Shown here: positions 3,879 to 50,045 of the stretch, in pieces | How positions within the stretch are numbered: the first letter of the stretch is position 1 | Layout: each line of letters starts with the position of its first letter | Source: Bacillota bacterium | Lineage (GTDB): Bacteria > Bacillota > Bacilli > Bu12 | Assembly (NCBI GenBank): GCA_014896485.1 | Contig: JADBKH010000007.1 | Location: forward strand, 83,963-147,962 | DNA: 64,000 nt | Reading direction: 5' to 3' | The notes under the pieces: generated by a model | Database searches by the model: none | What the model was told of the DNA's origin: nothing | The model's input: only the letters and a program-made list of their open reading frames with translations | Made by a program: the position numbers and the translations under genes

Positions 3879-4883
3879 TTAATTGTTTTCAAGTGCCACG
3901 GCATGGGCAATGCAAGGGATGTTATCCCCTTGTTCGATAGAGACGGGAGAGTGTAGCGAACCAGTTGCAACCACCAGCAAGCGGTTGAGTTCATGTCGGC
4001 GCATGCGTGTCAATAGGTGGCCGAACAGAAAACTGGCAATACACCCCGCTCCTGACGCTCCTGCTTGTACCGATGGGTCGCTTCCATAGTACGTTGCACC
4101 GGCATCCATCAGCCGCTCCCCCAAATCCAGATGGGCATCCCGCAAGAGTTGTTGCGCAGCTTCAAGACCGTATGCAGCCAGATCCCCTGTGACAATGAGA
4201 TCATAGTCGCTCGGTTTTCGCCCCGACTCTTTGAAGTGGGTCACGAGGGTATCCACTGCCGCAGGTACCTCGGCCATTCCCATGTTGTAAGGATCGGACA
4301 TGGCGCTGTCGACGACGCGCCCGACGGTCACCCATGTGACAGAGGGACCTTCACCGGTTGCGCTCAAAAGCCCGGCCCCTGCTGCCGTTACGGTCCACTG
4401 CGCAGTCTTCGGGCGTTGAGAACCATATTCGGTAGGAAAACGCATCTGGCGTTCCGCAGAGGCGTTGTGGCTGACTGCACCCGCCAATGTATATGTGGCC
4501 ATCCCTGATTCGATCAACAGTGCAGCCAATGCCAACGCCTCACCAGCTGTTGCACAGGCGTTGAACAGTCCAAAATAAGGGACACCAGCTGTTTGAGCCG
4601 CAAAGGTGGACGAAATGATTTGATTCAGCAGATCACCAGCAAAAAGCAAGTTTACCTTCTGGGCCTCGATTTTTCCCTTGCGCAGTGTCTCTGCAATCGC
4701 TTCTTCCAAAAGCCTGCGTTCTGCCTTCTCCCAAGAAGGTTGCCCCAGGTAAGGGTCCTCGTGGAGTTGGTCGAAATCATCAGAGAATGCACATTCCATC
4801 TCTTTTGGGCCTCCGACTGCCGCCGACGCAATGACCTTCGCTCGACCTTGTAACTGCCAAGTGCGTTGTCCAACCTGCCCCAT
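3879..4883 (-). CDS. spoVAD: Stage V sporulation protein AD (thiolase-like)
   Basis: MGQVGQRTWQLQ...AGDLLNQI...ATAGEALALAALLIESG shows the thiolase-like SpoVAD fold. The ORF track extends it to 5015 through a Cys/Arg-rich non-genic N-terminus. The true start is taken as the ATG at 4883. Confidence 0.85.
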   Translation of the reverse strand: MGQVGQRTWQLQGRAKVIASAAVGGPKEMECAFSDDFDQLHEDPYLGQPSWEKAERRLLEEAIAETLRKGKIEAQKVNLLFAGDLLNQIISSTFAAQTAGVPYFGLFNACATAGEALALAALLIESGMATYTLAGAVSHNASAERQMRFPTEYGSQRPKTAQWTVTAAGAGLLSATGEGPSVTWVTVGRVVDSAMSDPYNMGMAEVPAAVDTLVTHFKESGRKPSDYDLIVTGDLAAYGLEAAQQLLRDAHLDLGERLMDAGATYYGSDPSVQAGASGAGCIASFLFGHLLTRMRRHELNRLLVVATGSLHSPVSIEQGDNIPCIAHAVALENN

Positions 4884-4900
4884 CTCTGGCCCCTTTCTTT

Positions 4901-5380
4901 TCAGATGGCTGCAATAGCGGCATAGATGAGTGCGACAAAGAAGGCAGCAACTACGCCAAAGACGATCACTGGACCAGCGACACGGAACATCTCTGCCCCT
5001 ACTCCTAATATCCAACCTTCTGTCCGGCGTTCCATTGCAGAAGAGACGATCGAATTGGCAAAACCCGTTACCGGCACTGCCGCTCCGGCACCTGCAAACT
5101 GACCGAAACGGTCGTACCCACCCAATGCTGTCACGACAGAAGCGATCAGGATGAGGGTGGCGACGGTTGGGTTGGCTGCGTCCTCTTTGCTGAAGCCCAA
5201 GGCCATATAGCCGTTTTGGATCGCTTGCCCAACGAGACAGATCAATCCGCCAATGAAGAAAGCCACAATCGTATTGCGTCCAGTTGCTGGACGGGGCAGA
5301 TGATCGGCAATGACCTCTTGAAAGCTACGTTGATCCGATACGGCGCGAGGAAGGGTTGGTTGATCGTTCTTTGAAGCCAT
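4901..5380 (-). CDS. spoVAC: Stage V sporulation protein AC
   Basis: AFFIGGLICLVGQAI...FAGAGAAVPVTGFANS is the SpoVAC signature. RBS AAAGGGGAA precedes the ATG. Confidence 0.85.
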   Translation of the reverse strand: MASKNDQPTLPRAVSDQRSFQEVIADHLPRPATGRNTIVAFFIGGLICLVGQAIQNGYMALGFSKEDAANPTVATLILIASVVTALGGYDRFGQFAGAGAAVPVTGFANSIVSSAMERRTEGWILGVGAEMFRVAGPVIVFGVVAAFFVALIYAAIAAI

Positions 5381-37649: not shown

Positions 37650-38998
37650 TGCAGACAGACCTCCTTTAGTCCCTCAACCAACGTGTCGATCTCTGAACGT
37701 GTGCGCTGTTCGGTGACTGCAATCAGGAGTTGTGTCGTTCGTTGAGGATCAAAAGTACTCAAAGGAACTCCTGCGAGAATGCCTCGTTCTGCCAATTTTT
37801 CTACAACAGGAGCGGCCGGGCACCTCAAATCGACGACAAATTCATTGAAAAATGGTGCCTCGTAAGGAAGATGGAATCCAGCTGCCACCAGCTGTCTGGC
37901 GGTGTAATGGGCTTTTTGCAGCGATAGCTCGGCGACACGACGCAGCCCCTGCGGACCCATCCAGGCAAGATAAGCAGCATTCGCCAAAGTGAGCAACGTC
38001 TCATTGGTGCAGATATTGGAAGTGGCCCGTTCGCGGCGAATATGTTGTTCTCTTGTCTGCATGGTGAGCACATATCCCCGACGCCCTTGTCCATCCTGTG
38101 TTTCACCTACGATACGACCTGGCAGTCGGCGCAGAAAAGGTTGCTGCGCCGCGAAAAAACCGACGTAGGGTCCACCCCAGTTGAGATGACACCCGAGGGG
38201 CTGTCCCTCTCCAACCACGACATCGGCTCCTGCTTCGCCAGGAGGCTGGAGCAGTCCGAGTGCGATAGGATAGGCGGTGGTGACAAACAATGCTCCTGCC
38301 TGATGCGCCGCTTGGGCAAATGGGGCAATTGTCTCAATGGCACCATAAAAATTGGGTTGTGCCAAGCAGACAGCTGCCACGTCCTCACTAATTTGTTGCT
38401 GCAGCGCCTGCATCGAGGTTCGGCCGTCCTTTTGTTGAGGCAATGTTTCTACTTCGATCGATTGACCGGCCAGATAAGTGCGGAGGGTCTGTAAGTAATG
38501 TGGGTGCAGTGCTTGGGAGACAAGCACCTTCGCTCGCCCGGTGTGGGCAACCGCCAACAGCAGTGCTTCCGCGCAGGCCGATGCACCATCATACATCGAC
38601 GCATTGGCGATCGCGCAGCCACACAACGTTGCGATCATCGATTGGTATTCGAAGATTGCAGTCAACACGCCTTGTGATGCCTCGGCTTGGTAAGGCGTAT
38701 ACGCGGTGAGAAACTCACCGCGTGAAGTGACCCAATCGCAGATGGCAGGTACGAAGTGGTCATAGGCGCCGGCTCCCAAAAAGCAGGACGCTTGTAAGGT
38801 ATTGAGGTTGGCAGCGGCATGCTGCCGAAAGAGGCGGCTTGCCTCCGCTTCAGAGAGTGCCGGAGGCAGGGAGAGAGGCCGCTGCAACTGTACGTCTTCC
38901 GGTACATCCCGGTAAAGTTGTGTGGTGTCCTGTAAATGCAGGAATGTCAACATCTCCCGCTTTTCTGTTTCAGTCATTGGAATCCATGGATGGGTCAT
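37646..38998 (-). CDS. gcvPA: Glycine dehydrogenase (decarboxylating) subunit 1
   Basis: P-protein N-terminal half, 450 aa. Confidence 0.9.
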   Translation of the reverse strand: MTHPWIPMTETEKREMLTFLHLQDTTQLYRDVPEDVQLQRPLSLPPALSEAEASRLFRQHAAANLNTLQASCFLGAGAYDHFVPAICDWVTSRGEFLTAYTPYQAEASQGVLTAIFEYQSMIATLCGCAIANASMYDGASACAEALLLAVAHTGRAKVLVSQALHPHYLQTLRTYLAGQSIEVETLPQQKDGRTSMQALQQQISEDVAAVCLAQPNFYGAIETIAPFAQAAHQAGALFVTTAYPIALGLLQPPGEAGADVVVGEGQPLGCHLNWGGPYVGFFAAQQPFLRRLPGRIVGETQDGQGRRGYVLTMQTREQHIRRERATSNICTNETLLTLANAAYLAWMGPQGLRRVAELSLQKAHYTARQLVAAGFHLPYEAPFFNEFVVDLRCPAAPVVEKLAERGILAGVPLSTFDPQRTTQLLIAVTEQRTRSEIDTLVEGLKEVCLQ

Positions 38999-40131
38999 CT
39001 GCCTTCCCCTCCTTGTGTCGTTGGACGTTGTGGTACAGGGCTGCGGCCTCTCTGAACAAAAGGAAGAGAGACGCGCTGTGCGGAAACCAGCCGATTGCGG
39101 ATCTCGACAGCAAGCGCTGCTCCTGTGGGCTCAGAGAGCGCTTGACACTGGAGATATGCCAATGCAATGCTTTGGCCCAGTGTCGGTGATTGCGTGCCGC
39201 TGGTCACCCAGCCTGCAGGTTCGCCCGCTGCGTAGAGCTTCATGCCTTCTCTAGCAATGCCGCGCTCTGTCAGTACCAAACCGATCCGCTTTTTTTCGAG
39301 GCCGACTTGCCGTTGCTCTTCCAATGCCTCACGTCCGATGAAGGGATGATCCCAGTCGATAAACTTTTCGAGATCGGCTTCAAGGGGAGTGATCGTATCG
39401 GTCAGTTCATGGCCGTATAAGGGCAAAGCAGCTTCTAACCGCAGCGTATCGCGCGCACCCAATCCACAAGGAACAGCCCCTGCTTCGAGCAGCTTTTCCC
39501 ACAGAGGTCCGGCTTCCTCTGCCTTGCTGAAGATCTCCACGCCATCTTCACCGGTATAGCCGGTACGCGAGATAAGGACCGTATGTCCCCATAGGGTTCG
39601 TTGTGCAGCACGGAACGGCCGGATCGATCCGATTTCGGTACCGCTTGCCTGCTCGATGGCCGGGATCGCAGCAGGACCTTGCGCTGCTAAAAGCGCAATC
39701 TCAGCGGAGCGATCGTAAAGCCTTGCGCCGTTTTCTACTTTTGCTTGTTCCGCCGCACGGCGTAGCGCCTCTCCGTCTTTGGCAATGTTTGCAGCATTGG
39801 CGACAAGCAAGAACCGATCCGATTGCAATCGATAGACCATCGCATCATCGACGGTTCCTCCGTTGGGCCACAGCAAAAAACCATAACGCGCACTGCCGGT
39901 ACGCATCGTCGTTGCATTGCGCGAAAAGGCGACATCCACCAGCTGCGCAGCTGCTTCCCCGTCAATGATCCACTCTCCCATGTGGGAGACATCAAACAGC
40001 CCCCATTTTTGGCGTACCGCATGATGCTCGGCCAAGATAGACTGAAAGTAGAGCGGCATCTCAAAACCTGCGAAGGAGGTCCAACGGGCGACCTGAGACC
40101 GATAACGATCAAATAGAGGCGTATGTCGCAT
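38995..40131 (-). CDS. gcvT: Glycine cleavage system aminomethyltransferase T
   Basis: MRHTPLFDRY... with GGAGGAG 9 nt upstream of the ATG at 40131. The ORF-track 5' extension to 40287 runs into the riboswitch and is not coding. Confidence 0.9.
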   Translation of the reverse strand: MRHTPLFDRYRSQVARWTSFAGFEMPLYFQSILAEHHAVRQKWGLFDVSHMGEWIIDGEAAAQLVDVAFSRNATTMRTGSARYGFLLWPNGGTVDDAMVYRLQSDRFLLVANAANIAKDGEALRRAAEQAKVENGARLYDRSAEIALLAAQGPAAIPAIEQASGTEIGSIRPFRAAQRTLWGHTVLISRTGYTGEDGVEIFSKAEEAGPLWEKLLEAGAVPCGLGARDTLRLEAALPLYGHELTDTITPLEADLEKFIDWDHPFIGREALEEQRQVGLEKKRIGLVLTERGIAREGMKLYAAGEPAGWVTSGTQSPTLGQSIALAYLQCQALSEPTGAALAVEIRNRLVSAQRVSLPFVQRGRSPVPQRPTTQGGEGR

Positions 40132-40182
40132 TTTCTTTCGCTCCTCCTCTCCTAAGACAACCGATCTCATGGCTTTCTTGGC

Positions 40183-40375
40183 AAAACAGAAAGAGGCGCA
40201 TTCAAACAGATGCGCCTCTGTGTGGTACCAGAGAGTTGAAGCCCCGTGGGTGGCCGCTTTGCGACGCTCTCCAGAGTGGCCTCGCATTTTGGTCCTTTTG
40301 CCTGAGAGATTGTCTGCGCTTCTTACTCCTTCGGCGCCGCACGCAGGATAATTGCGGTCTCTCCCAAAATGGTCA
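40183..40375 (-). promoter_or_regulatory. Tandem glycine riboswitch with terminator-type expression platform
   Basis: Minus strand: GGGAGAGACCGCAAT...GCGCCGAAGGAGTAAG...CTCTCAGGCAAAAGGACC is aptamer 1. CTCTGGAGAGCGTCGCAAAGCGGCCACC...GGGGCTTCAACTCTCTGG is aptamer 2. A hairpin AGAGGCGCATCTGTTTGAATGCGCCTCT plus TTTCTGTTTT follows. The blocks GGAGAG, CCGAAGG and CTC.GG..AAAGGAC match the glycine aptamer consensus. Confidence 0.7.
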
Positions 40376-40487
40376 TCAGCCTATTTTATTGTAAGCGAGT
40401 TCTGCTGCCCGTGCACGCCATATTCAGCGTTCCTCTGGGCATGGTAAGGAGCAGAGAAAACAATGCGTGCAAGGGGAGATATACGCC

Positions 40488-42242
40488 GTGGCTGTGCAAC
40501 TTTCGCAAATCAAAGCGTCCACGTTGGAGTTGCCCATGGTCCTCGTTGATACACGGGCGCTGCGCAAGACAGTCGAGGCGTTGGAAGAAGGACGTTTTGA
40601 ACCGTTGACCTGGTGGCAACAGCATTTGACAGCGCGGACGATTCGAAACAACAGCCGCGCGCAAGGGCTAATCTCACTAAAGTCACTTCCAAGAGACTTC
40701 ATCCCCTATCCTCATCAGCTGGAGACGGTTCATCGGGTTGTAGAGGAGATGCATGGGTCGGCACTTTTGGCCGACGAGGTTGGCTTGGGGAAGACCATCG
40801 AAGCCGGGTTGGTTCTAAAAGAGTACCTGTTGCGCGGGCTCGTCCGCCGTGCACTCATTCTGGTGCCGGCGTCCTTGCGCATCCAATGGGCTCGCGAGCT
40901 GCGAGAGAAATGTGGCATTCAGGCCACGGTACAACGGTCCGAATGGGAATGGTCACGAGCGGATCTGGTCATCGCCTCTTTGGAAACAGCCAAGCGGGAG
41001 CCCCATCGTTCGATCGTTTTAGAGCAACCATGGGATATGGTCATTGTCGACGAGGCACATAAATTGAAGAACCGCAAAACGCAAAACTGGCAGTTTGTCA
41101 ATATACTGCCCAAAAAATACATGCTGTTGCTGACCGCAACGCCTATTCAAAATGATTTAAATGAACTCTATTACCTGGTTTCTTTGCTGCGTCCGGGATA
41201 TCTTGGAACCAAGCGCCATTTTACGTCTCGGTTCATGGCAGGAAAGCATGAGGTAAAGGATGCCGAAGGGCTACGTCAGCTGCTCGACGGTGTGCTGATC
41301 CGCAACCGACGTGGGCAGGCGGATCTCCTTTTTCCCAAACGCGTGGTCCATGCAGAATGGGTAACCCTTTCTCCCCAAGAACGAGAACTCTACCAGACAG
41401 TTACCGACTTTGTGCGTCGACGTTATCGCTCGCTGCGATCTGCAAGGCAGAATGCATTGCCACTCATCATCTTACAGCGAGAGGTCTGCTCCAGCGTGCA
41501 GGCCACGGCAGTTACTTTACTCAACATGGCAGATCGCACAGAGGATAAGCAGATCGAAAGAGAACTTCGCTCGATGGCAGCGATTGCAGCCCGTGTTCAG
41601 CAGAACAGCAAAATCGAGCGTTTGATTCCGATGCTGCAAAAAAGCGAACAGCAGTGGGTCGTCTTTACGGAGTTTCGTACCACCCAAGAATTGTTGCTGC
41701 GGCGACTGTTGGATGCAGGTATTCCAGCAATCGGTTTTCATGGGGAATTGGGTCGGGGCAGTCGAGAATGGGTCCAGTCGCTTTTTCACCGGCGCGCCAA
41801 GGTATTGGTGAGCACGCAAGCAGGTGGCGAAGGGATCAACCTTCAATTTTGCAGCCACGCCGTCAATTTTGATTTGCCTTGGAACCCCATGCGCATTGAG
41901 CAGCGTATTGGCCGCCTCCATCGCATTGGCCAGCAGCATGACGTACACATCATCAACTTGAGTTCGGTTGGGACCGTCGAAGAGAAAATTCTTTATCTTC
42001 TTCAGGAGAAGATCCATCTCTTTGAACGGGTTATTGGGGAACTGGATGCAATCGTACGGCAGAGCCTTTCAGAAAGCAGTTTTGAGGGACGAATCATGGA
42101 GCTTCTGGCCGAATCGGAAGATGATAGCGAGTTTGAGGCAAAGTTGCAGGAGATCGCCGATCAGGTGGAAAACGCAAAGCAGCAGCTGTGGCGTTCCAAC
42201 CCACTGGATAGACTTTATTCACAGGAGGAGCATGCTACTTGA
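40488..42242 (+). CDS. SNF2-family DNA/RNA helicase (YqhH-like)
   Basis: DEVGLGKTIEAG is Walker A. DEAH box is VIVDEAHKLKN. The helicase C-terminal motifs follow. The start is ambiguous among GTG 40467, GTG 40488 (best RBS) and ATG 40536. Confidence 0.85.
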   Translation: MAVQLSQIKASTLELPMVLVDTRALRKTVEALEEGRFEPLTWWQQHLTARTIRNNSRAQGLISLKSLPRDFIPYPHQLETVHRVVEEMHGSALLADEVGLGKTIEAGLVLKEYLLRGLVRRALILVPASLRIQWARELREKCGIQATVQRSEWEWSRADLVIASLETAKREPHRSIVLEQPWDMVIVDEAHKLKNRKTQNWQFVNILPKKYMLLLTATPIQNDLNELYYLVSLLRPGYLGTKRHFTSRFMAGKHEVKDAEGLRQLLDGVLIRNRRGQADLLFPKRVVHAEWVTLSPQERELYQTVTDFVRRRYRSLRSARQNALPLIILQREVCSSVQATAVTLLNMADRTEDKQIERELRSMAAIAARVQQNSKIERLIPMLQKSEQQWVVFTEFRTTQELLLRRLLDAGIPAIGFHGELGRGSREWVQSLFHRRAKVLVSTQAGGEGINLQFCSHAVNFDLPWNPMRIEQRIGRLHRIGQQHDVHIINLSSVGTVEEKILYLLQEKIHLFERVIGELDAIVRQSLSESSFEGRIMELLAESEDDSEFEAKLQEIADQVENAKQQLWRSNPLDRLYSQEEHAT

Positions 42243-43183
42243 ACCTTACCGATTCGCACGATCCGCATGATCCGAATGATATCGAAGCAATTCGCCGCTT
42301 TGCCCTCACCTTTTTTCGCAGTCGCAACTGTGAAGTACAGGAGCAGGGAGATCATTTGCTCGTCCACGCTTCTTCCGAAGTGGTACGTCTACTGGAAGAG
42401 CCCTGGAGCTATCTTTGGCAAGCCCTTTCGCACGGAGAGGCGCCTCCCCGTACGCACCGTTTTCGCACACGGCGAGATACGCAAGAAACAGATGAAGAGA
42501 GTGAGTTGTTGGCACCGGGAGGGCGTGCATTTGAGCGCCTGTTGGATGCAGCGTTGGGACAGGGAAAGGTGACGCGCGGCTATGCCTTGGTTTCCTCCCA
42601 ACAGGTCAACGAACAGATAATGGCACTGCGGAGGCGCGCCACCCGCAGACAGCCGAAGCGCTACTTGGTCGATTGGAAAGTGGTGCAAAAACCTTTTCTG
42701 ATCGTCACTTGGCTGGTGACATTCATCTGTGGCAGTTCAAAAGCACAAGATCGCCGGAATGCTATCGATTTAGAGAATGGTGAGATTCTGGAAGATGCTA
42801 CAGCACTGTTGCAGTTGCCCGTCGTCGAGACATCTCTGGAGTCGTCTACAATACCTGCTGCGCTTCCCCTTCAGGAGGCTGTTGAGCGTTTGATGGGTGA
42901 AGTACGCCAAGACAGTCAACCCGATCCGCAATGGTTAGCTGCGGGAAAGGCACGCTACGAGGCGGCACTGCAACGGATGGAACGTTATTTTCTCGAACTT
43001 GGTGTCACAGCAGATGATCCGGAATATGTGCGGCGGTGTGAAGAGCTGCGCTGGCGCGAGGCACCACGCGTGGAAATTGCCCCGGATACAGCCGCGCTGC
43101 TCTATGTCCCCTATTTGCAGGTACGTTTCCTGCAAACTTCGATGTGTGAAGAGATCATCGAAGACCGCTATCCCCTTTTTTGA
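42239..43183 (+). CDS. YqhG-family protein
   Basis: TTG start overlapping the helicase TGA as TTGA, with AGGAGGAG 8 nt upstream. Same yqhH-yqhG pairing as B. subtilis. Family call rests on synteny. Confidence 0.55.
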   Translation: MNLTDSHDPHDPNDIEAIRRFALTFFRSRNCEVQEQGDHLLVHASSEVVRLLEEPWSYLWQALSHGEAPPRTHRFRTRRDTQETDEESELLAPGGRAFERLLDAALGQGKVTRGYALVSSQQVNEQIMALRRRATRRQPKRYLVDWKVVQKPFLIVTWLVTFICGSSKAQDRRNAIDLENGEILEDATALLQLPVVETSLESSTIPAALPLQEAVERLMGEVRQDSQPDPQWLAAGKARYEAALQRMERYFLELGVTADDPEYVRRCEELRWREAPRVEIAPDTAALLYVPYLQVRFLQTSMCEEIIEDRYPLF

Positions 43184-43298: not shown

Positions 43299-44648
43299 TT
43301 GCCTCAGTTGCTGACGATGATCATCTCCATTGCGCTGGGAACTCTGCTCAATCCGCTCAACTCTTCGATGATTTCGGTCGCTCAGCCGACGTTGATCACG
43401 GTGTTTCACACCCAACTGAGCGCCATGAGCCTTATGATTGGATCGTACTATATCGTCAGCGCCATCGCCCAACCTGCTATGGGACGGTTGGGCGATCTGT
43501 TTGGCCACAAGCGCTTCTTCTTGTTGGGAGTCCTTTTGGTCGCAATCGCTTCGGTGGCCGCGCCCTTCTCCCCAAACTTTTGGACATTACTCGTCATTCG
43601 GCTGATTCAGGCAGCTGGATCGGCTACCATATCTCCCAATGGTATGGCGCTCGTGCGTCACAAGGTACGAGAGCGTCAACAAGGCAACGCTTTTGGAATT
43701 CTTGCAACGGTAACCGGAGCGGGTGCGGCACTGGGGCCGACCATCGGCGGGTTGCTCCTTGCTCTCGGTTGGCAGGCGCTCTTTCTGATCAATCTCCCCC
43801 TGTGTCTCATTGCTGGCCTTTTGGCATGGCGCACATTAGAAGAGACCCCGCAGCAGCCAAATATCATCTTTGACTATCGTGGAACAGCCAGCCTAGCTGC
43901 TGTGTTGGCGGGGCTCATGTACTTGCTCGACTCTCTGATTGGCGGGCATCTCAGCCTCGTATGGGTGGTGGTCTTTGCCCTTGGAAGCTTTTGCTTTGCC
44001 TGGTTTGAACAACACACCGAGGAACCCCTGATTTCGTTTGGCCTTTTTCGGCAACGCCGCTTTGCTTTGGTCAGTATTGTGACGTTTCTAACCAACCTTG
44101 CCATGTATGCCCTCTTGTTCTCTTTTCCCCTTTATCTCGAACTGTTGCGCCATTTTTCACATGCGACGACAGGATTGCTCATGTTGTCTTTTTCCGGCGT
44201 AATGTCCTTGATCTCTCCTCTTGGCGGGAGGTTGACCGATCAGCACGGAGCCAAACCTCCCTTGATCATTGGCGCTGCTTGCAGCGTGCTCGGTATGATC
44301 TTGTTGGCGATGTGGACCGGTCTGCGGACGCCCCTCCCCTGGGTCATCGGGGCGATGATCGTCAGTGGTGTCGGTGTTGGCATCGGGGGCGTAGCCATGC
44401 AGACGGCAATCATCCAAGCGGTGCCCCGAGAGATGAGCGGGATTGCATCCGGGCTTTTCATGACCGTTCGCTATATGGGTACCATTTTCTCTCAAACCTT
44501 GTTGGATGGCTTTCTTGGCCGCAGTGTCACCCTACCCGGCCTACGTGCCATGGACTTGGTCTTAGCAGTACTATTGGTGGTGGCACTGGTTGCTTCTCTT
44601 TTGATAAGGCAGCAGAAAGAAGCGGGAGAAAGGGTTTCGGAGGCATGA
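43299..44648 (+). CDS. MFS transporter (14-TM DHA-like)
   Basis: MFS motif GRLGDLFGHKR between TM2 and TM3, with multiple hydrophobic spans. The start is probably the TTG at 43308. Confidence 0.8.
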   Translation: MPQLLTMIISIALGTLLNPLNSSMISVAQPTLITVFHTQLSAMSLMIGSYYIVSAIAQPAMGRLGDLFGHKRFFLLGVLLVAIASVAAPFSPNFWTLLVIRLIQAAGSATISPNGMALVRHKVRERQQGNAFGILATVTGAGAALGPTIGGLLLALGWQALFLINLPLCLIAGLLAWRTLEETPQQPNIIFDYRGTASLAAVLAGLMYLLDSLIGGHLSLVWVVVFALGSFCFAWFEQHTEEPLISFGLFRQRRFALVSIVTFLTNLAMYALLFSFPLYLELLRHFSHATTGLLMLSFSGVMSLISPLGGRLTDQHGAKPPLIIGAACSVLGMILLAMWTGLRTPLPWVIGAMIVSGVGVGIGGVAMQTAIIQAVPREMSGIASGLFMTVRYMGTIFSQTLLDGFLGRSVTLPGLRAMDLVLAVLLVVALVASLLIRQQKEAGERVSEA

Positions 44649-45016
44649 CGTACACGTGCATGCACAGATGTTTAGAAGAGATGATCGATCGGATTCCACC
44701 GCTTTTTCTTGAACAGTTAAATGGTGGCATTTCCCTGCTTGAAGAGGAGAAGCCAGATGAGCAGCTGAGCGATGTCTATATCCTTGGAGAGTACCTCGAT
44801 CAACCGTACGGGCTCGGATCCCTGATCGTGCTCTATTACGGTTCTTTTGCTGCGACATTGGCGGGAGAACCAGAGTCAGTCTGGAAAAAGGAACTGTGGG
44901 AAACGTTGCTCCATGAATTGCGACATCATGTAGAGGCATTGGCGGGAATGGGCGATCTACAGGCTGAAGATGAAGCACGTTTTGAGGCTTGGTTCAAAGA
45001 AGGAGAGGCAAAATGA
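44645..45016 (+). CDS. Small zincin-like metallopeptidase-family protein (HExxH)
   Basis: 123 aa, LLHELRHHVEALAG. ATGA overlap with the MFS stop. Its frame is hidden inside a longer overlapping ORF in the track. Confidence 0.5.
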   Translation: MTYTCMHRCLEEMIDRIPPLFLEQLNGGISLLEEEKPDEQLSDVYILGEYLDQPYGLGSLIVLYYGSFAATLAGEPESVWKKELWETLLHELRHHVEALAGMGDLQAEDEARFEAWFKEGEAK

Positions 45017-45327: not shown

Positions 45328-46575
45328 ATGGCTGAAGAGCGACTCGGTGATTGGCGCTCAGTCTTGCAGGAAGAGGTAGAAGAGCCTGGGATCGGTTGGC
45401 AGTCATTGCTCGGGGAGACCGGATTGGAACGCAATGCCCCCTGCCCTTGTGGCAGCGGACGAAAATACAAGCAATGCTGTCTCCCCAAAGTAGAATTGGG
45501 ACAGATGGCATTGCTAGCCCAGCAAAAGTTGGAAAACGGGGAAATCGAAGCAGGAGATGCACTGCTCCGGCAGGCGCTACGCATTCCGCCACATGTATGG
45601 CAGGGGGATGCCCAATTGGCCAAGTTGTGGAGTGAAGCAGCGGAATCGGCTATCTACCTTGCGTATGATCGCTGCCGCTATGACGAAGCAATGACCCTGG
45701 TCCAGCAGGCGAGCCAAACCGATGTGGACCATCCGCAGCGATGGATGCTCTTGTCCGCCAACCTCAACCACCGCCTCGGGCATTTGGCCGAAGGATTACA
45801 GCAGGCGACGGCGTTGCTTGAAAACCATGGACTCGGATTGCAAGCCGTATGCGAGGTCGCAGAACAGCTGATCGACTTACGACGTTATGACGAGGCCCTG
45901 CGATTGATTCTCACAGCCTCTGTGATTCAGGGCAAGGATCTTGAAACGGAAACAGATAGCATCGGACTGGACGAACAAGAGCTTGCACAGCTGCGCGATG
46001 AACTTGGGCGGCTGGAGCTTCTCTGTCGACTTGCCGATGGCCAACTCGACGAGGCCTGGCAACTTTGGCAGCGTCGAGGCGCTTCTGCCTATGAAGCTTG
46101 CCTGTGGATAAGTGCAGCAGTAGCCTTTGGGCAAGAGGGGCGCTTTGAAACCCTCTTGAAAGCCGTGGATGATCCCCTGCTTGTCGATTTTTGGAAAGGG
46201 GTGTGGAATTGGCATTCAGGAGATCGGGCGTCTGCCGCTTCCCATCTTCAGAAAGTCGCAACTTTATCGCGACAGGACACGCATACAGAAGAACGTGTTG
46301 CTGCATCCCTCTATCTCGGTGAAGCTTCCCAAGCGATTGGAATAGCTGAGCGCGCGCTCGCATCTCACCCTTTCGATCACGCCAGCCTACTACAGCTTGC
46401 ATTTGCAGCTGCCGTTGCACAAGACCAGACACGGTGTAATGCCGCTTTAAGCTGCCTCGGTCCGACAGCAGCTTGGCAATTGCGCCAATACGAGCTACGT
46501 CATCCAGGATGGCCGGATTCTCTTGCCGCTCACTGGGCAAACCCTTTGTTGGTTCGACTTTCTGTGCGCTGGTGA
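45328..46575 (+). CDS. SEC-C metal-binding motif protein with helical TPR-like repeats
   Basis: CPCGSGRKYKQCC near the N-terminus, followed by about 350 aa of Leu/Ala-rich helical repeats. RBS AAGGGGGAG. Confidence 0.6.
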   Translation: MAEERLGDWRSVLQEEVEEPGIGWQSLLGETGLERNAPCPCGSGRKYKQCCLPKVELGQMALLAQQKLENGEIEAGDALLRQALRIPPHVWQGDAQLAKLWSEAAESAIYLAYDRCRYDEAMTLVQQASQTDVDHPQRWMLLSANLNHRLGHLAEGLQQATALLENHGLGLQAVCEVAEQLIDLRRYDEALRLILTASVIQGKDLETETDSIGLDEQELAQLRDELGRLELLCRLADGQLDEAWQLWQRRGASAYEACLWISAAVAFGQEGRFETLLKAVDDPLLVDFWKGVWNWHSGDRASAASHLQKVATLSRQDTHTEERVAASLYLGEASQAIGIAERALASHPFDHASLLQLAFAAAVAQDQTRCNAALSCLGPTAAWQLRQYELRHPGWPDSLAAHWANPLLVRLSVRW

Positions 46576-46597
46576 CCTCCCTTTATTTTGCGGCATC

Positions 46598-47710
46598 TCA
46601 ACGTACGACATTGTTACCGGGCGGCGTTGGGATTGCAGAGGGTGTCGGTGCAGCAGGAGCATTCATTCCGCCCGGCGATGGCAAACCAGGCGGCGGAAAG
46701 AGCGCGTTGCCACCAGGTTGTGTCTGACGCATCGACCCTCTCCCACCTACTCCCAAAGCATTGGGATCGTAGAGAAAGAGGGTTTGCGTGTACACGTTGT
46801 GTCCAATGCTCCCATCGTCTCCTGGCTGTCCTTTCGGTTGGTCCAAAGCTATGTTCCACTCTTTGGCCGGCATGCTCAGCAAAAGGCCGACAAAACGGCG
46901 CTGACTGCCACTATCTGTAAGAATACGGATTCCAGGACCACTCGGTCCGAGCATCAAGACACGTTGGCCGTCCCGGTTCTTTCCATCTGGGAGTATGTGG
47001 TAGTTGGCATTGCCCAGTTTGGGGTTGAAACGCAACAAATCGTTCCAGGTAAGGGCGAATGTGTAGGGTCCCCCACCCGGTAAAGGCTCGCGATTCGTAT
47101 CCGTCCCAGACGGAGACGGAGCAGAAGGCTGGTTCTTCCCTTTTTCTTGTTGCACTTGTGGGAGAATTGCAGTTGCCCCTCCATAAGGGGTTGGCCGGTT
47201 GGGAGGAGCCCCATTATACCCGGCCATTCCTGGCCCATTTTGAGGGAGTGTATGGGGATCGACCACATAAAGACGTTGTGTATAACGTCCCATGGATGCG
47301 TCCTGTTCTCCTTTTGGTTGATCAAACCAAGGTTGCCAGGCCGTTTCTTTGGGAAAAACAGCCTGAAAACCAAGGATATAACCTTGCCCGTCGGTCATAA
47401 TGTGCAAACCGCTGGCACCTGCACCAAAGCGATAACCTGTTTTGGGCTCCCAAGTGCTGTTTTGCTGAGAGGCGTAAGTGAGCTTCGGATTATATTGCTG
47501 CAAGGTTGCAAAACTGAGTAGCCCAGGGGGAATGCCGGTTGCCGTAGGCGGCGGTGTTGCCACCGTACCGGGCGACTGTTGTGGAAGCGTCTGAGAGACG
47601 CCCGCCTGCTGTGGGATGGGCATCCGCGTGGCTGAAGGCCCACATGCAGCAAGCACCGATGCCATCGTTGCAACTGAAACCGCCATCTTGAACCACTGCA
47701 CCTGCCACAT
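46598..47710 (-). CDS. Lipoprotein with two tandem homologous ~95-aa domains and Pro/Gly-rich linkers
   Basis: Signal peptide MWQVQWFKMAVSVATMASVLAAC with an L-A-A-C lipobox. RBS AAAGGTGGGG lies 7 nt before the ATG at 47710. The repeat units are YNPKLTYASQQNS...FDQPKGEQDASMGRYTQRLYVVDPHTL and FNPKLGNANYHIL...LDQPKGQPGDDGSIGHNVYTQTLFLYDPNAL. Confidence 0.6.
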   Translation of the reverse strand: MWQVQWFKMAVSVATMASVLAACGPSATRMPIPQQAGVSQTLPQQSPGTVATPPPTATGIPPGLLSFATLQQYNPKLTYASQQNSTWEPKTGYRFGAGASGLHIMTDGQGYILGFQAVFPKETAWQPWFDQPKGEQDASMGRYTQRLYVVDPHTLPQNGPGMAGYNGAPPNRPTPYGGATAILPQVQQEKGKNQPSAPSPSGTDTNREPLPGGGPYTFALTWNDLLRFNPKLGNANYHILPDGKNRDGQRVLMLGPSGPGIRILTDSGSQRRFVGLLLSMPAKEWNIALDQPKGQPGDDGSIGHNVYTQTLFLYDPNALGVGGRGSMRQTQPGGNALFPPPGLPSPGGMNAPAAPTPSAIPTPPGNNVVR

Positions 47711-47787
47711 GAAACTACCCCACCTTTCGGAGAGGTAGTTTTTCCCAAGTTTTCCTGATTGATTCTTTGATGTGGATGTTGAACGAG

Positions 47788-48021
47788 CTACACCCAGTGA
47801 AAGACCAAGTTGGCGAGCCAAGCGATCGTCAGCAGGATGCCGATAAACTGCCGCATGTCTATTCCGTGCCGAGAGAGAAAGCGATGCAACCGGTTTGGAC
47901 CCGGTGAACGCCGCCCATGTTGTCGGGCACTTTCTTCCTTGCGTTGCTTGCTGCGCGTCTTTCGGTCACGTTTGTCTGGAAATCGGACAATGCCTTGACG
48001 ATCGTCGGACATTAAACGCAC
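47788..48021 (-). CDS. Possible small protein with a basic N-terminus and C-terminal TM helix
   Basis: 77 aa abutting the NYN gene stop. Weak evidence. Confidence 0.25.
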   Translation of the reverse strand: MRLMSDDRQGIVRFPDKRDRKTRSKQRKEESARQHGRRSPGPNRLHRFLSRHGIDMRQFIGILLTIAWLANLVFHWV

Positions 48022-48023
48022 CC

Positions 48024-48554
48024 CTAGCTATGAATCGGTTCATCTTCCACTTTTTCGACATAGGGACGCAGATCTGCGAGATCGATAAACTTATCTACAG
48101 CGTTGCGCAATTCATGGGCGATCATCCCCTTGGTGGCCACGGCGATAATCTCTTTTCCGCGAGAACGCAACAGCTCCACGGCCCGCTCAAAATCGCCGTC
48201 TCCCGACAGCAAGATGGCCACATCGTATTTGTCGACTGTATTGAACATGTCAATCGCGATTTCAATATCAAGATTTGCTTTCTGCGTCTCTTCTCCCGTC
48301 TCTTGATCGACCATGGTTTTGATGGTCTTTGTGCGTACAGTATAGCCAATTGCTGTCAATGCATTGAGGAACGCCCGATCCTTACTCTCAGAAGGTGCTT
48401 TTACGCCGGTGTAATAAAATGCATTATAAATTTCATATTCCTTTGCAAAGTACTCCAGTATTTTCCGGTATTCGAAGTGCCAGTTGAGTTTTCGTTGCGC
48501 GTAAAACATGTTGGCGCCATCGATAAAGATAGCCGCTCGGCGCATTCTCACCAT
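48024..48554 (-). CDS. NYN-domain (LabA-like) protein
   Basis: AIFIDGANMFYA...DVAILLSGDGDFERAVELL is the PIN-like NYN nuclease fold. Confidence 0.7.
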   Translation of the reverse strand: MVRMRRAAIFIDGANMFYAQRKLNWHFEYRKILEYFAKEYEIYNAFYYTGVKAPSESKDRAFLNALTAIGYTVRTKTIKTMVDQETGEETQKANLDIEIAIDMFNTVDKYDVAILLSGDGDFERAVELLRSRGKEIIAVATKGMIAHELRNAVDKFIDLADLRPYVEKVEDEPIHS

Positions 48555-48671
48555 CCTCTTTGTAGCCAGCGTACCATACGGTTTCCAGGATCGACAATGG
48601 AACTTGCCAGCATATCGAGGAGAGGATTCGGATGGTGCGCCTAAAATGGAGCTTTCTAGGATGCTGCCGTA

Positions 48672-50045
48672 CTACCAGCCGATCCTGCCCACTTGAGGCA
48701 TCTGGCGCAATGTCTCTTCGAGATCGCGTTTGATGCGTTCCAATCCCTCTTCTGTCTTTGACTCGGCGCGAAGAACCAAAGCCGGTTGGGTATTTGATGC
48801 ACGTACCAAACCCCATCCATCTGGGAAGAGAACCCGCGCACCGTCGATATCAATGACATCGTATCGTGCCCGATAATGTTCCTGCACGCGGGCTACAACA
48901 TCAAACTTGACATCATCGGGGCAATCCACCCTGGTTTCTGGGGTGGAAAAGTAATGCGGGATACTCTGCCGGATTTGGGAGAAGGAACGTTCCTCGTTGG
49001 AGAGGATACGTAAGAGTCTTGCAGCTGCATACATGGCATCATCGTAACCATAATACTCGTCTGCAAAAAACATATGCCCGCTCATTTCTCCCGTAAAGAC
49101 AGCTCCCACTTCCTGCATCTTTGCCTTAATTAAGGAATGGCCGGTCTTATAAAACATCGTTTTTCCACCCAACCGCTCGATCTCTTCCACCAAAGCCTGG
49201 CTGCACTTGACTTCGACAATGCAGGGCTTATCAGGATACTTCGGCAAAATCTCACGCCAAAAGAGGATCATCATCTCGTCGCCCCATAAAATCGATCCCG
49301 TCTCGTCAACGGCGCCGAGGCGATCGCCGTCTCCATCGAACGCAACCCCAACGTCCGCATGACTGCGCTTTACTTCTGCAATGAGATCCTGAAGGTTCTC
49401 TGGCTCTACCGGATCAGGGTGGTGGTTGGGAAAACGTCCGTCTGGTTCAGCATACAGTGGGATGACCTCACACCCGAGCCCCTTAAGCAAAGAGATGGCG
49501 CATACACTGGTGGCACCGTTGCCGCAATCGGCGACAACTTTGAGTGGTTTCGGCCCCAGTTTGACTTTGCTGGTGATTTCAGCGATGTAGTCAGGGATGG
49601 GATTTGCGGTAGAAAGGCGGCCCTCTCCTTTGTGGAATGAACCGGCAACCATTCTCCGGTAAATCTCTTGGATCTCGTCCCCATATAACGTTCCAAACCC
49701 ATGCGCAAGCTTAAAACCGTTGTATTCCGGCGGGTTGTGACTGGCTGTGATCATCACACCACCGTCTTTACCATAATGGACCCTGCTGTAGTAAAAGACT
49801 GGCGTAGGTACCAGGCCAATGTCGATCACATCCACCCCTGTTGAAAGCAAGCCATCGACCATCGCCTCTCGAAAAGCTGGCGATGAGAGGCGGTTATCTC
49901 GGCCAACAATGACCTCGTGTTCACCCTTCTCTTGTATGTAGGTGCCATAGGCTTGACCGAGAAGGCGGACGATGTCCGGAGTCAAGTCTTGATCGACGAT
50001 GCCACGGATATCGTATTCGCGAAAGATTTCTTGGTGGATTTCCAT
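48672..50045 (-). CDS. Phosphoglucomutase/phosphomannomutase
   Basis: Active-site ITASHNPPEYNG, metal-binding loop FDGDGDR and sugar-binding GEMSGH. Confidence 0.9.
   Translation of the reverse strand: MEIHQEIFREYDIRGIVDQDLTPDIVRLLGQAYGTYIQEKGEHEVIVGRDNRLSSPAFREAMVDGLLSTGVDVIDIGLVPTPVFYYSRVHYGKDGGVMITASHNPPEYNGFKLAHGFGTLYGDEIQEIYRRMVAGSFHKGEGRLSTANPIPDYIAEITSKVKLGPKPLKVVADCGNGATSVCAISLLKGLGCEVIPLYAEPDGRFPNHHPDPVEPENLQDLIAEVKRSHADVGVAFDGDGDRLGAVDETGSILWGDEMMILFWREILPKYPDKPCIVEVKCSQALVEEIERLGGKTMFYKTGHSLIKAKMQEVGAVFTGEMSGHMFFADEYYGYDDAMYAAARLLRILSNEERSFSQIRQSIPHYFSTPETRVDCPDDVKFDVVARVQEHYRARYDVIDIDGARVLFPDGWGLVRASNTQPALVLRAESKTEEGLERIKRDLEETLRQMPQVGRIGW

Follow-up and report, generated by a model that had tools for sequence, protein, structure and literature searches.

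The closest described counterpart of the protein treated here is TTHB210, which is encoded on plasmid pTT27 of Thermus thermophilus HB8, is annotated as a 'DUF5602 domain-containing protein', has a crystal structure (PDB 3vg8) and matches the Pfam family PF18197, 'TTHB210-like', at 35.7 bits; a literature search on TTHB210, DUF5602 and PF18197 found no paper. In this work we analysed a gene for a 370-residue lipoprotein that lies on the minus strand, at 46598..47710, in a stretch of 64,000 nucleotides from a Bacillota bacterium (contig JADBKH010000007.1, positions 83,963 to 147,962; this whole stretch is called the window, and all coordinates refer to it unless a locus is named). The product carries two homologous domains of about 95 residues and belongs to a rare family that appears to be remotely related to the TTHB210-like proteins. 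With moderate confidence, we propose that it is a lipid-anchored, tethered and pseudo-dimeric binding module, whose constrained Pro-rich C-terminal tail would take part in the recognition of a partner. The features of the gene and its product, in the order in which they are read, are the following:

47718..47727, minus strand: ribosome-binding site AAAGGTGGGG, read from the sequence, 7 nucleotides 5' of the ATG at 47710
46598..47710, minus strand: gene, an open reading frame (ORF) with a product of 370 residues
47642..47710, minus strand: lipoprotein signal peptide, residues 1-23 (Lys8 in the n-region, hydrophobic core, lipobox L-A-A-C, Cys23)
47525..47641, minus strand: N-terminal Pro/Thr/Gln-rich tether, residues 24-62 (10 Pro in 39 residues; predicted local distance difference test, pLDDT, 37-50)
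47246..47524, minus strand: domain 1, residues 63-155 (NPKL ... WQPWFDQPKG ... YTQRLYVVDP; 105.6 bits against the family hidden Markov model, HMM)
47060..47245, minus strand: inter-domain Pro/Gly-rich linker, residues 156-217 (13 Pro and 11 Gly in 62 residues; pLDDT 35-58)
46751..47059, minus strand: domain 2, residues 218-320 (NPKL ... EWNIALDQPKGQPG ... YTQTLFLYDP; 72.7 bits against the family HMM)
46601..46750, minus strand: C-terminal Pro/Gly-rich tail, residues 321-370 (pLDDT <50, predicted to be disordered)
46598..46600, minus strand: stop codon TGA, 22 nucleotides from the stop of a convergent SEC-C/TPR gene

Public gene calls have the same start and the same 370-residue product, and the gene and its strong ribosome-binding site, both proposed in an earlier reading of the sequence (hereafter the original prediction), were borne out. 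The one ortholog found (84 % identity; locus L001, a contig of 2.3 kb from the assembly of a public sequencing run) differs from the minus-strand gene at 42, 21 and 121 sites in the first, second and third codon positions; of the codon changes, 101 are synonymous and 58 non-synonymous, and none creates a stop. The region does contain long plus-strand ORFs, and the original prediction had named two of them, 46523..47083 and 47147..47521, as possible competitors with better conservation. When compared with the ortholog, the first showed 10 synonymous and 71 non-synonymous changes, with five stops in the ortholog, and the second 10 synonymous and 40 non-synonymous changes; in addition, the minus-frame product has 57 homologs in several phyla. 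Since the pattern of codon changes favours the minus frame and not the plus ORFs, the ORF at 46598..47710 is a real gene, and the plus-strand ORFs that overlap it do not code for protein. The alternative that these code and that the minus-strand ORF is not a gene is refuted, and we give it practically no credence. A consensus scan of 46300..48800 found no promoter-like site, and the terminator-like sites in the same interval were two weak ones on the plus strand, not above those of shuffled sequence.

The N-terminus of the window protein (MWQVQWFK-MAVSVATMASV-LAAC, with a 12-residue hydropathy maximum of 1.94) passes the lipobox pattern ([LVI][ASTVI][GAS]-C) and the hydrophobicity check, and the L001 ortholog keeps the signal peptide and an identical lipobox (MWHIQWFKIAVFAATTASILAAC). 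The L-A-A-C signal described in the original prediction, with its conserved Cys23, is thus upheld, and the window protein is genuinely of the lipoprotein type, with a predicted lipid anchor on the outer face of the cytoplasmic membrane. Among 58 proteins of the family described below, a lipobox is present in 24 and a hydrophobic N-terminus in 25; the others are N-terminally truncated fragments. As 49 of the 58 members carry one or the other, the family is extracytoplasmic, and the surface location assigned earlier to the window protein is backed by the family as a whole.

The internal duplication, which had also been noticed from the sequence, withstood formal alignment statistics. Local alignment of the two halves (Smith-Waterman) gave a score of 116, compared with 39 +/- 6 (maximum 65) over 1000 shuffles (z = 12.5), and both units match the family HMM; the window protein carries two homologous domains of about 95 residues. 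Structure prediction of one repeat, which had been proposed as a check, gave a confident AlphaFold2 model (pLDDT 92; predicted template modelling score, pTM, 0.80), in which two short helices around NPKL are followed by three strands, a long ordered P-W-F-D-Q-P-x-G loop and a final Y-T-Q strand. In the full-length model, computed with the family alignment, both domains exceed a pLDDT of 90 (domain 2 at about 90-95), and the WFDQP loop reaches 94-97 in the models. The pTM of this model was 0.65 in spite of about 135 disordered residues, which we read as indicating that they are packed against each other; we infer that they may form one pseudo-dimeric body.

The original prediction recognised no family for this protein, and indeed no curated model covers the domain: scans of the window protein with Pfam and NCBIfam gave no match at E <= 10, and the 58 family proteins gave none over the domain itself. 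Among PDB sequences, neither the protein nor the domain profile gave more than chance-level matches. A word-indexed search of 5.8 billion proteins found only the window protein itself, whose public entry is a hypothetical protein from a 'Firmicutes bacterium' metagenome-assembled genome, and one ortholog; the same type of search with a 72-sequence domain alignment returned no match, and a scan of metagenomes of the Joint Genome Institute (JGI) for close relatives found none. A homology search with the repeat unit had been suggested as well, and it was run here as an exhaustive search of 1.84 billion cluster representatives, using a family profile built from four repeat units. It retrieved 57 proteins at E <= 1e-3 (22 at E <= 1e-10), nearly all with two matched stretches, and so revealed a rare but real family that the original prediction had missed.

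In the refined family HMM, which has 91 positions, all complete members show two tandem domains, and the single-domain matches are short fragments. Accessory domains found among the 58 proteins were Cu_amine_oxidN1 in 10, FxLYD in 7, a pyrroloquinoline quinone (PQQ) glucose/sorbosone dehydrogenase (GSDH) domain in one (P0026) and a cupredoxin domain in one (P0043). The clusters at 90 % identity that were looked up hold one to four sequences each, under the sole name 'hypothetical protein'. By a degenerate DNA pattern (WFDQP ... YTQH), searched in one genome per species, 26 loci were obtained, 25 of which encode family members, with both domains visible in 20 of these 25. All 25 member loci come from metagenome-assembled genomes, assigned to Trueperaceae and other Deinococcota, Spirochaetaceae and other Spirochaetales, Symbiobacteriaceae, other Bacillota and one Oceanococcus. 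Neither a further copy of the domain nor a TTHB210-like gene occurs in the window. Several high-GC members (P0004, P0016, P0022, P0023, P0033, P0035 and P0042) have in domain 1 a long insertion rich in Ala, Gly, Thr, Ser and Pro, of about 160 residues in P0033, after the WFDQ loop and before the YTQ strand; this loop therefore tolerates large disordered insertions.

Across 130 domains of the family, the most conserved positions are Asn9 (127/130), Asp65 (118), Gln66 (116), Tyr81 (114), Trp63, Gly59, Pro55, Gly34 and Gly78. Both domains of the window protein keep Asn9, Asp65-Gln66 and Tyr81-Thr82-Gln83. One explanation of this conservation is that the protein is a small extracytoplasmic enzyme, with an active site made of the Asn of NPxL, the Asp-Gln of WFDQP and the Tyr-Thr-Gln motif. 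More than 85 % of the 130 domains, both of the window protein among them, keep these polar residues, and the WFDQP loop is ordered in the models. However, an Asn-Pro at a helix start and Trp/Phe, typical core residues, would be consistent with a structural role, and a tandem pseudo-dimer would be more typical of binding modules, so that we consider an enzymatic function very unlikely. Two further positions, His29 (in G-M-G-x-H-x-G) and His84 (in Y-T-Q-H), vary together in the 130 domains: both are present in 69, His29 only in 3, His84 only in 24 and neither in 34. The window protein has Arg at both positions in domain 1, and Met and Thr, respectively, in domain 2, and it belongs to the His-less minority of the family.

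The relation to TTHB210 emerged from profile-profile comparison. When the 72-sequence domain alignment was compared by hhalign with 30 untrimmed TTHB210-like sequences, the probability was 48 % (P = 1.8e-4), and with the TTHB210 core columns only it rose to 84.3 % (P = 7.3e-6, score 34.0). In the controls, the reversed alignment scored 12.5 and 120 column shuffles scored 10.9 +/- 2.1 (maximum 20.7), with a probability of at most 9 %. The aligned blocks comprise F-x-P-G-[ML]-G and then G-P-x-L-x(3)-D-x(2)-G-x-[LV]-V-x(6)-P; the final strand, of the aromatic-x-x-His type, joins them when the threshold is relaxed. Because the score is far above those of the reversed and shuffled controls, the window family and the TTHB210-like proteins appear to be remotely homologous and to form one superfamily; the window protein itself falls outside PF18197. 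A different kinship was suggested by topology: the BLIP-like fold of SCOP has two helices and four antiparallel strands, with tandem duplication and an extracytoplasmic location. Kinship with BLIP-like or PepSY proteins gave no significant fold match and is not supported.

The genes next to TTHB210-like genes (L029-L043) were also inspected. In four of six independent look-ups the next gene encodes a cupredoxin of about 180 residues (PF00127), and in one a cytochrome c; the TTHB210-like and cupredoxin genes overlap by 4 nucleotides in one case (L029:4001-4417, then 4414-4968) and are separated by 9-49 nucleotides in the others. Genes for a PQQ-dehydrogenase or a di-haem oxidoreductase lie downstream, and extracytoplasmic function (ECF) sigma or ArsR-type regulators are encoded nearby. 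On pTT27 itself, ECF-type sigma and anti-sigma factor genes adjoin TTHB210, and a di-haem oxidoreductase gene is found nearby. In the window family, three Symbiobacteriaceae loci have a cupin and a Cu_amine_oxidN1/cytochrome c protein as neighbours. Another member, P0030 (361 residues), is rich in Met and His at both ends (HNGEDHS...MQMPGGQMDHSKHGGMQMMGP and MQKHQHGMEQGGQTQGGMQHQH), which we take to resemble copper-binding tracts and which fits the metal or redox theme of some relatives.

Since the cupredoxin and PQQ fusions and the cytochrome c neighbour in the window family match the partner set of the TTHB210-like genes, these observations support a tie of the superfamily to extracytoplasmic electron carriers or metals. 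The original prediction had missed this context, together with the kinship to TTHB210-like/DUF5602 proteins, and had looked to the cell wall rather than to electron carriers. The tie cannot be safely transferred to the window protein, because this lacks the His pair and a redox context. An alternative is nevertheless that the window protein itself is a redox or metal accessory, delivering a metal such as copper, or serving as docking or electron-transfer partner of a cupredoxin or cytochrome c. It would be in line with the gene order at TTHB210-like loci, including the sigma/anti-sigma pair and di-haem oxidoreductase gene of pTT27, with the four invariant His of TTHB210-like proteins and with the P0043 and P0026 fusions, the Symbiobacteriaceae neighbours and the ends of P0030. 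Neither domain of the window protein, however, has the coupled His pair, and the protein contains neither Met/His-rich tracts nor any Cys besides that of the lipobox; no cytochrome, cupredoxin or PQQ enzyme is encoded among the window genes scanned, and within its own family the redox association is confined to a few lineages. Such a role seems to us unlikely for this protein. A wider hypothesis is that the undescribed family and the DUF5602/TTHB210-like proteins make up a superfamily of accessory factors for electron carriers of the periplasm or surface (cupredoxins, c-type cytochromes and PQQ dehydrogenases), acting for example in metal delivery or docking, of which the window protein would be a re-purposed, His-less derivative with a conserved Pro-rich tail for a new Gram-positive surface interaction; we offer it as a tentative idea, somewhat more plausible than the former and still rather doubtful.

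The Pro-rich segments, described in the original prediction as lying between and after the two units, were supported as flexible tethers flanking the domains by their low pLDDT, and all three low-complexity segments are predicted to be disordered. One of the two sequences quoted for them was misplaced, since PPPTATGIPPG (residues 52-62) belongs to the N-terminal tether and precedes unit 1, and the linker between the units reads PQNGPGMAGYNGAPPNRPTPYGG...REPLPGGGPYT (residues 156-217). The tail is 98 % identical to that of the ortholog at the amino-acid level, with 17 synonymous and one non-synonymous changes (Fisher test against the remainder of the gene, p = 0.003; against the two folded domains, p = 0.02). 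In this single ortholog pair, no other segment of the protein is as constrained as the predicted-disordered C-terminal tail, where purifying selection is strongest. The tail has synonymous changes at the same frequency as other parts of the gene, so that what is constrained is the peptide, not the DNA. Most other retrieved family sequences stop directly after domain 2 and have no such tail.

Taken together, our findings suggest the following mode of action for the lipid-anchored binding module. The signal peptide and the lipobox Cys23 would provide a lipid anchor on the outer face of the cytoplasmic membrane, and the tether would hold the pseudo-dimeric two-domain body away from it. The module may act as a non-catalytic binder or adaptor rather than as an enzyme. 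In most relatives, the coupled His pair, along with cupredoxin, cytochrome c or PQQ-dehydrogenase as a fused domain or a neighbouring gene, would point to a metal or an electron carrier as partner. As the His pair is lost in both domains and redox neighbours are missing, the window protein probably binds something else, either a protein or an envelope component, and the constrained C-terminal tail probably shares in that binding.

Several points weigh against this proposal. No partner or ligand was identified, and the near-invariant polar residues Asn9, Asp65, Gln66, Tyr81, Thr82 and Gln83 could form a catalytic or ligand site instead of a structural network. The packing into a pseudo-dimer has the pTM as its sole basis, and the result on tail constraint depends on one ortholog pair only. 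The link of the domain to TTHB210 is remote: PF18197 matched neither the window protein (E <= 10) nor any of the 58 members (E <= 0.01), HMMER cross-scores between the family and the TTHB210-like proteins were at most 9 bits, and Foldseek against the PDB gave no significant match by E-value. Finally, the gene neighbourhood at the 25 family loci is conserved only within lineages and not across them.

In the window, the lipoprotein gene is bordered by the following two genes:

45328..46575, plus strand: SEC-C/TPR gene, convergent, with 22 nucleotides between the two stop codons
47788-48021, minus strand: ORF of 77 residues, with a GTG start at 48021 directly after the stop (48024-48026) of an NYN-domain gene

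The convergent and nearly abutting position of the SEC-C gene, which ends at 46575, agrees with what had been reported before. The 77-residue ORF encodes a basic N-terminus and a hydrophobic C-terminus (FIGILLTIAWLANLVFHWV), has no Pfam match and occupies the same position in L001 and L048; L001 keeps the upstream order of NYN-domain gene, 77-residue ORF and lipoprotein gene. Upstream on the same strand, the window continues from the 77-residue ORF and the NYN-domain gene to genes for a phosphoglucomutase/phosphomannomutase (PGM/PMM), a GalE-like epimerase and an AsnB-type protein and, farther upstream, to an LCP-family gene, a SEDS gene and a class B penicillin-binding protein (PBP) gene. Elsewhere in the family, the genes next to spirochaete members encode a LOG-like protein and a glycosyltransferase, and the Trueperaceae loci L005 and L020 have an adjacent PBP1C-type gene. 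The gene of P0007, from a high-GC lipoprotein subfamily in a spore-forming organism (L045:4001-6260 and L046), is flanked by DUF421, VanW+G5, GerAC and Spore_permease genes; this locus is the only context that hints at the spore idea of the original prediction.

According to that idea, the protein would be a surface binder of peptidoglycan, of a secondary wall polymer or of a spore layer, with its Pro-rich segments reaching across the wall. Gram-positive surface proteins often have Pro/Gly-rich regions that span the wall, and the GalE-like epimerase, PGM/PMM, LCP, SEDS and class B PBP genes, which lie 3-12 kb upstream on the same strand, are suggestive in the same direction, as are the PBP1C-type genes of the two Trueperaceae loci and the genes flanking P0007. 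Nevertheless, the protein has no LysM, SH3b, PG_binding, SLH or other wall-binding domain (no Pfam match), the envelope and spore neighbours are lineage-specific and sporadic, and genomes of Deinococcota and Spirochaetota contain family members too. The idea of a specific binder of the wall or spore integument is not supported, and we regard it as improbable.

Two other parts of the window deserve mention. At 38995-43183, a gcvT-like gene (minus strand), a SNF2-family helicase gene (plus strand) and a YqhG-family gene (plus strand) lie side by side, an arrangement which we assume to match gcvT-yqhH-yqhG of Bacillus subtilis and which would suggest a genome of Bacilli-like lineage. The ORF at 44279-45016 (plus strand) overlaps the 3' end of a major facilitator superfamily (MFS) transporter gene (43299..44648) and has a Zincin_1 (HELRHH) metallopeptidase-like motif in its C-terminal part; given this overlap and the position of the motif, its true start is probably an internal Met near 44640.

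For the organism of the window the gain from this work is modest, namely one rare surface lipoprotein, and its constrained, predicted-disordered tail offers a concrete handle for finding the partner. For the curated databases Pfam and NCBIfam, an uncovered and confidently foldable family can be added that is tied, if remotely, to a solved structure (TTHB210/DUF5602). DUF5602 in turn obtains a first testable functional lead, as a cupredoxin or cytochrome c gene is usually next to it and matching fusions occur in the new family, whose His-containing members can likewise be tested for a redox or metal role.

Compared with known systems, the window protein resembles the Pro-rich-tethered bacterial lipoproteins in having an N-terminal lipobox Cys followed by a flexible low-complexity tether, whereas its conserved C-terminal Pro-rich tail is not usual in that class. 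This likeness is uninformative about function, because the class is defined by the anchor and not by a folded domain. With the TTHB210-like proteins the comparison concerns the domain itself. These are typically single-domain proteins of about 140 residues, with an extra segment (VDHVD...GHPGV) and four invariant His (DH ... GHPG ... PHYH; 30 sequences), none of which is conserved at the aligned positions of the window protein. In contrast, the complete members of the window family are tandem pairs with their own motifs, NPxL, PWFDQPxGxP and YTQH, and with a different His pair; the window protein itself lacks all of these His residues. Both groups nevertheless have in common their signal peptides and extracytoplasmic location, as well as gene-context ties to cupredoxins, cytochrome c and PQQ enzymes.

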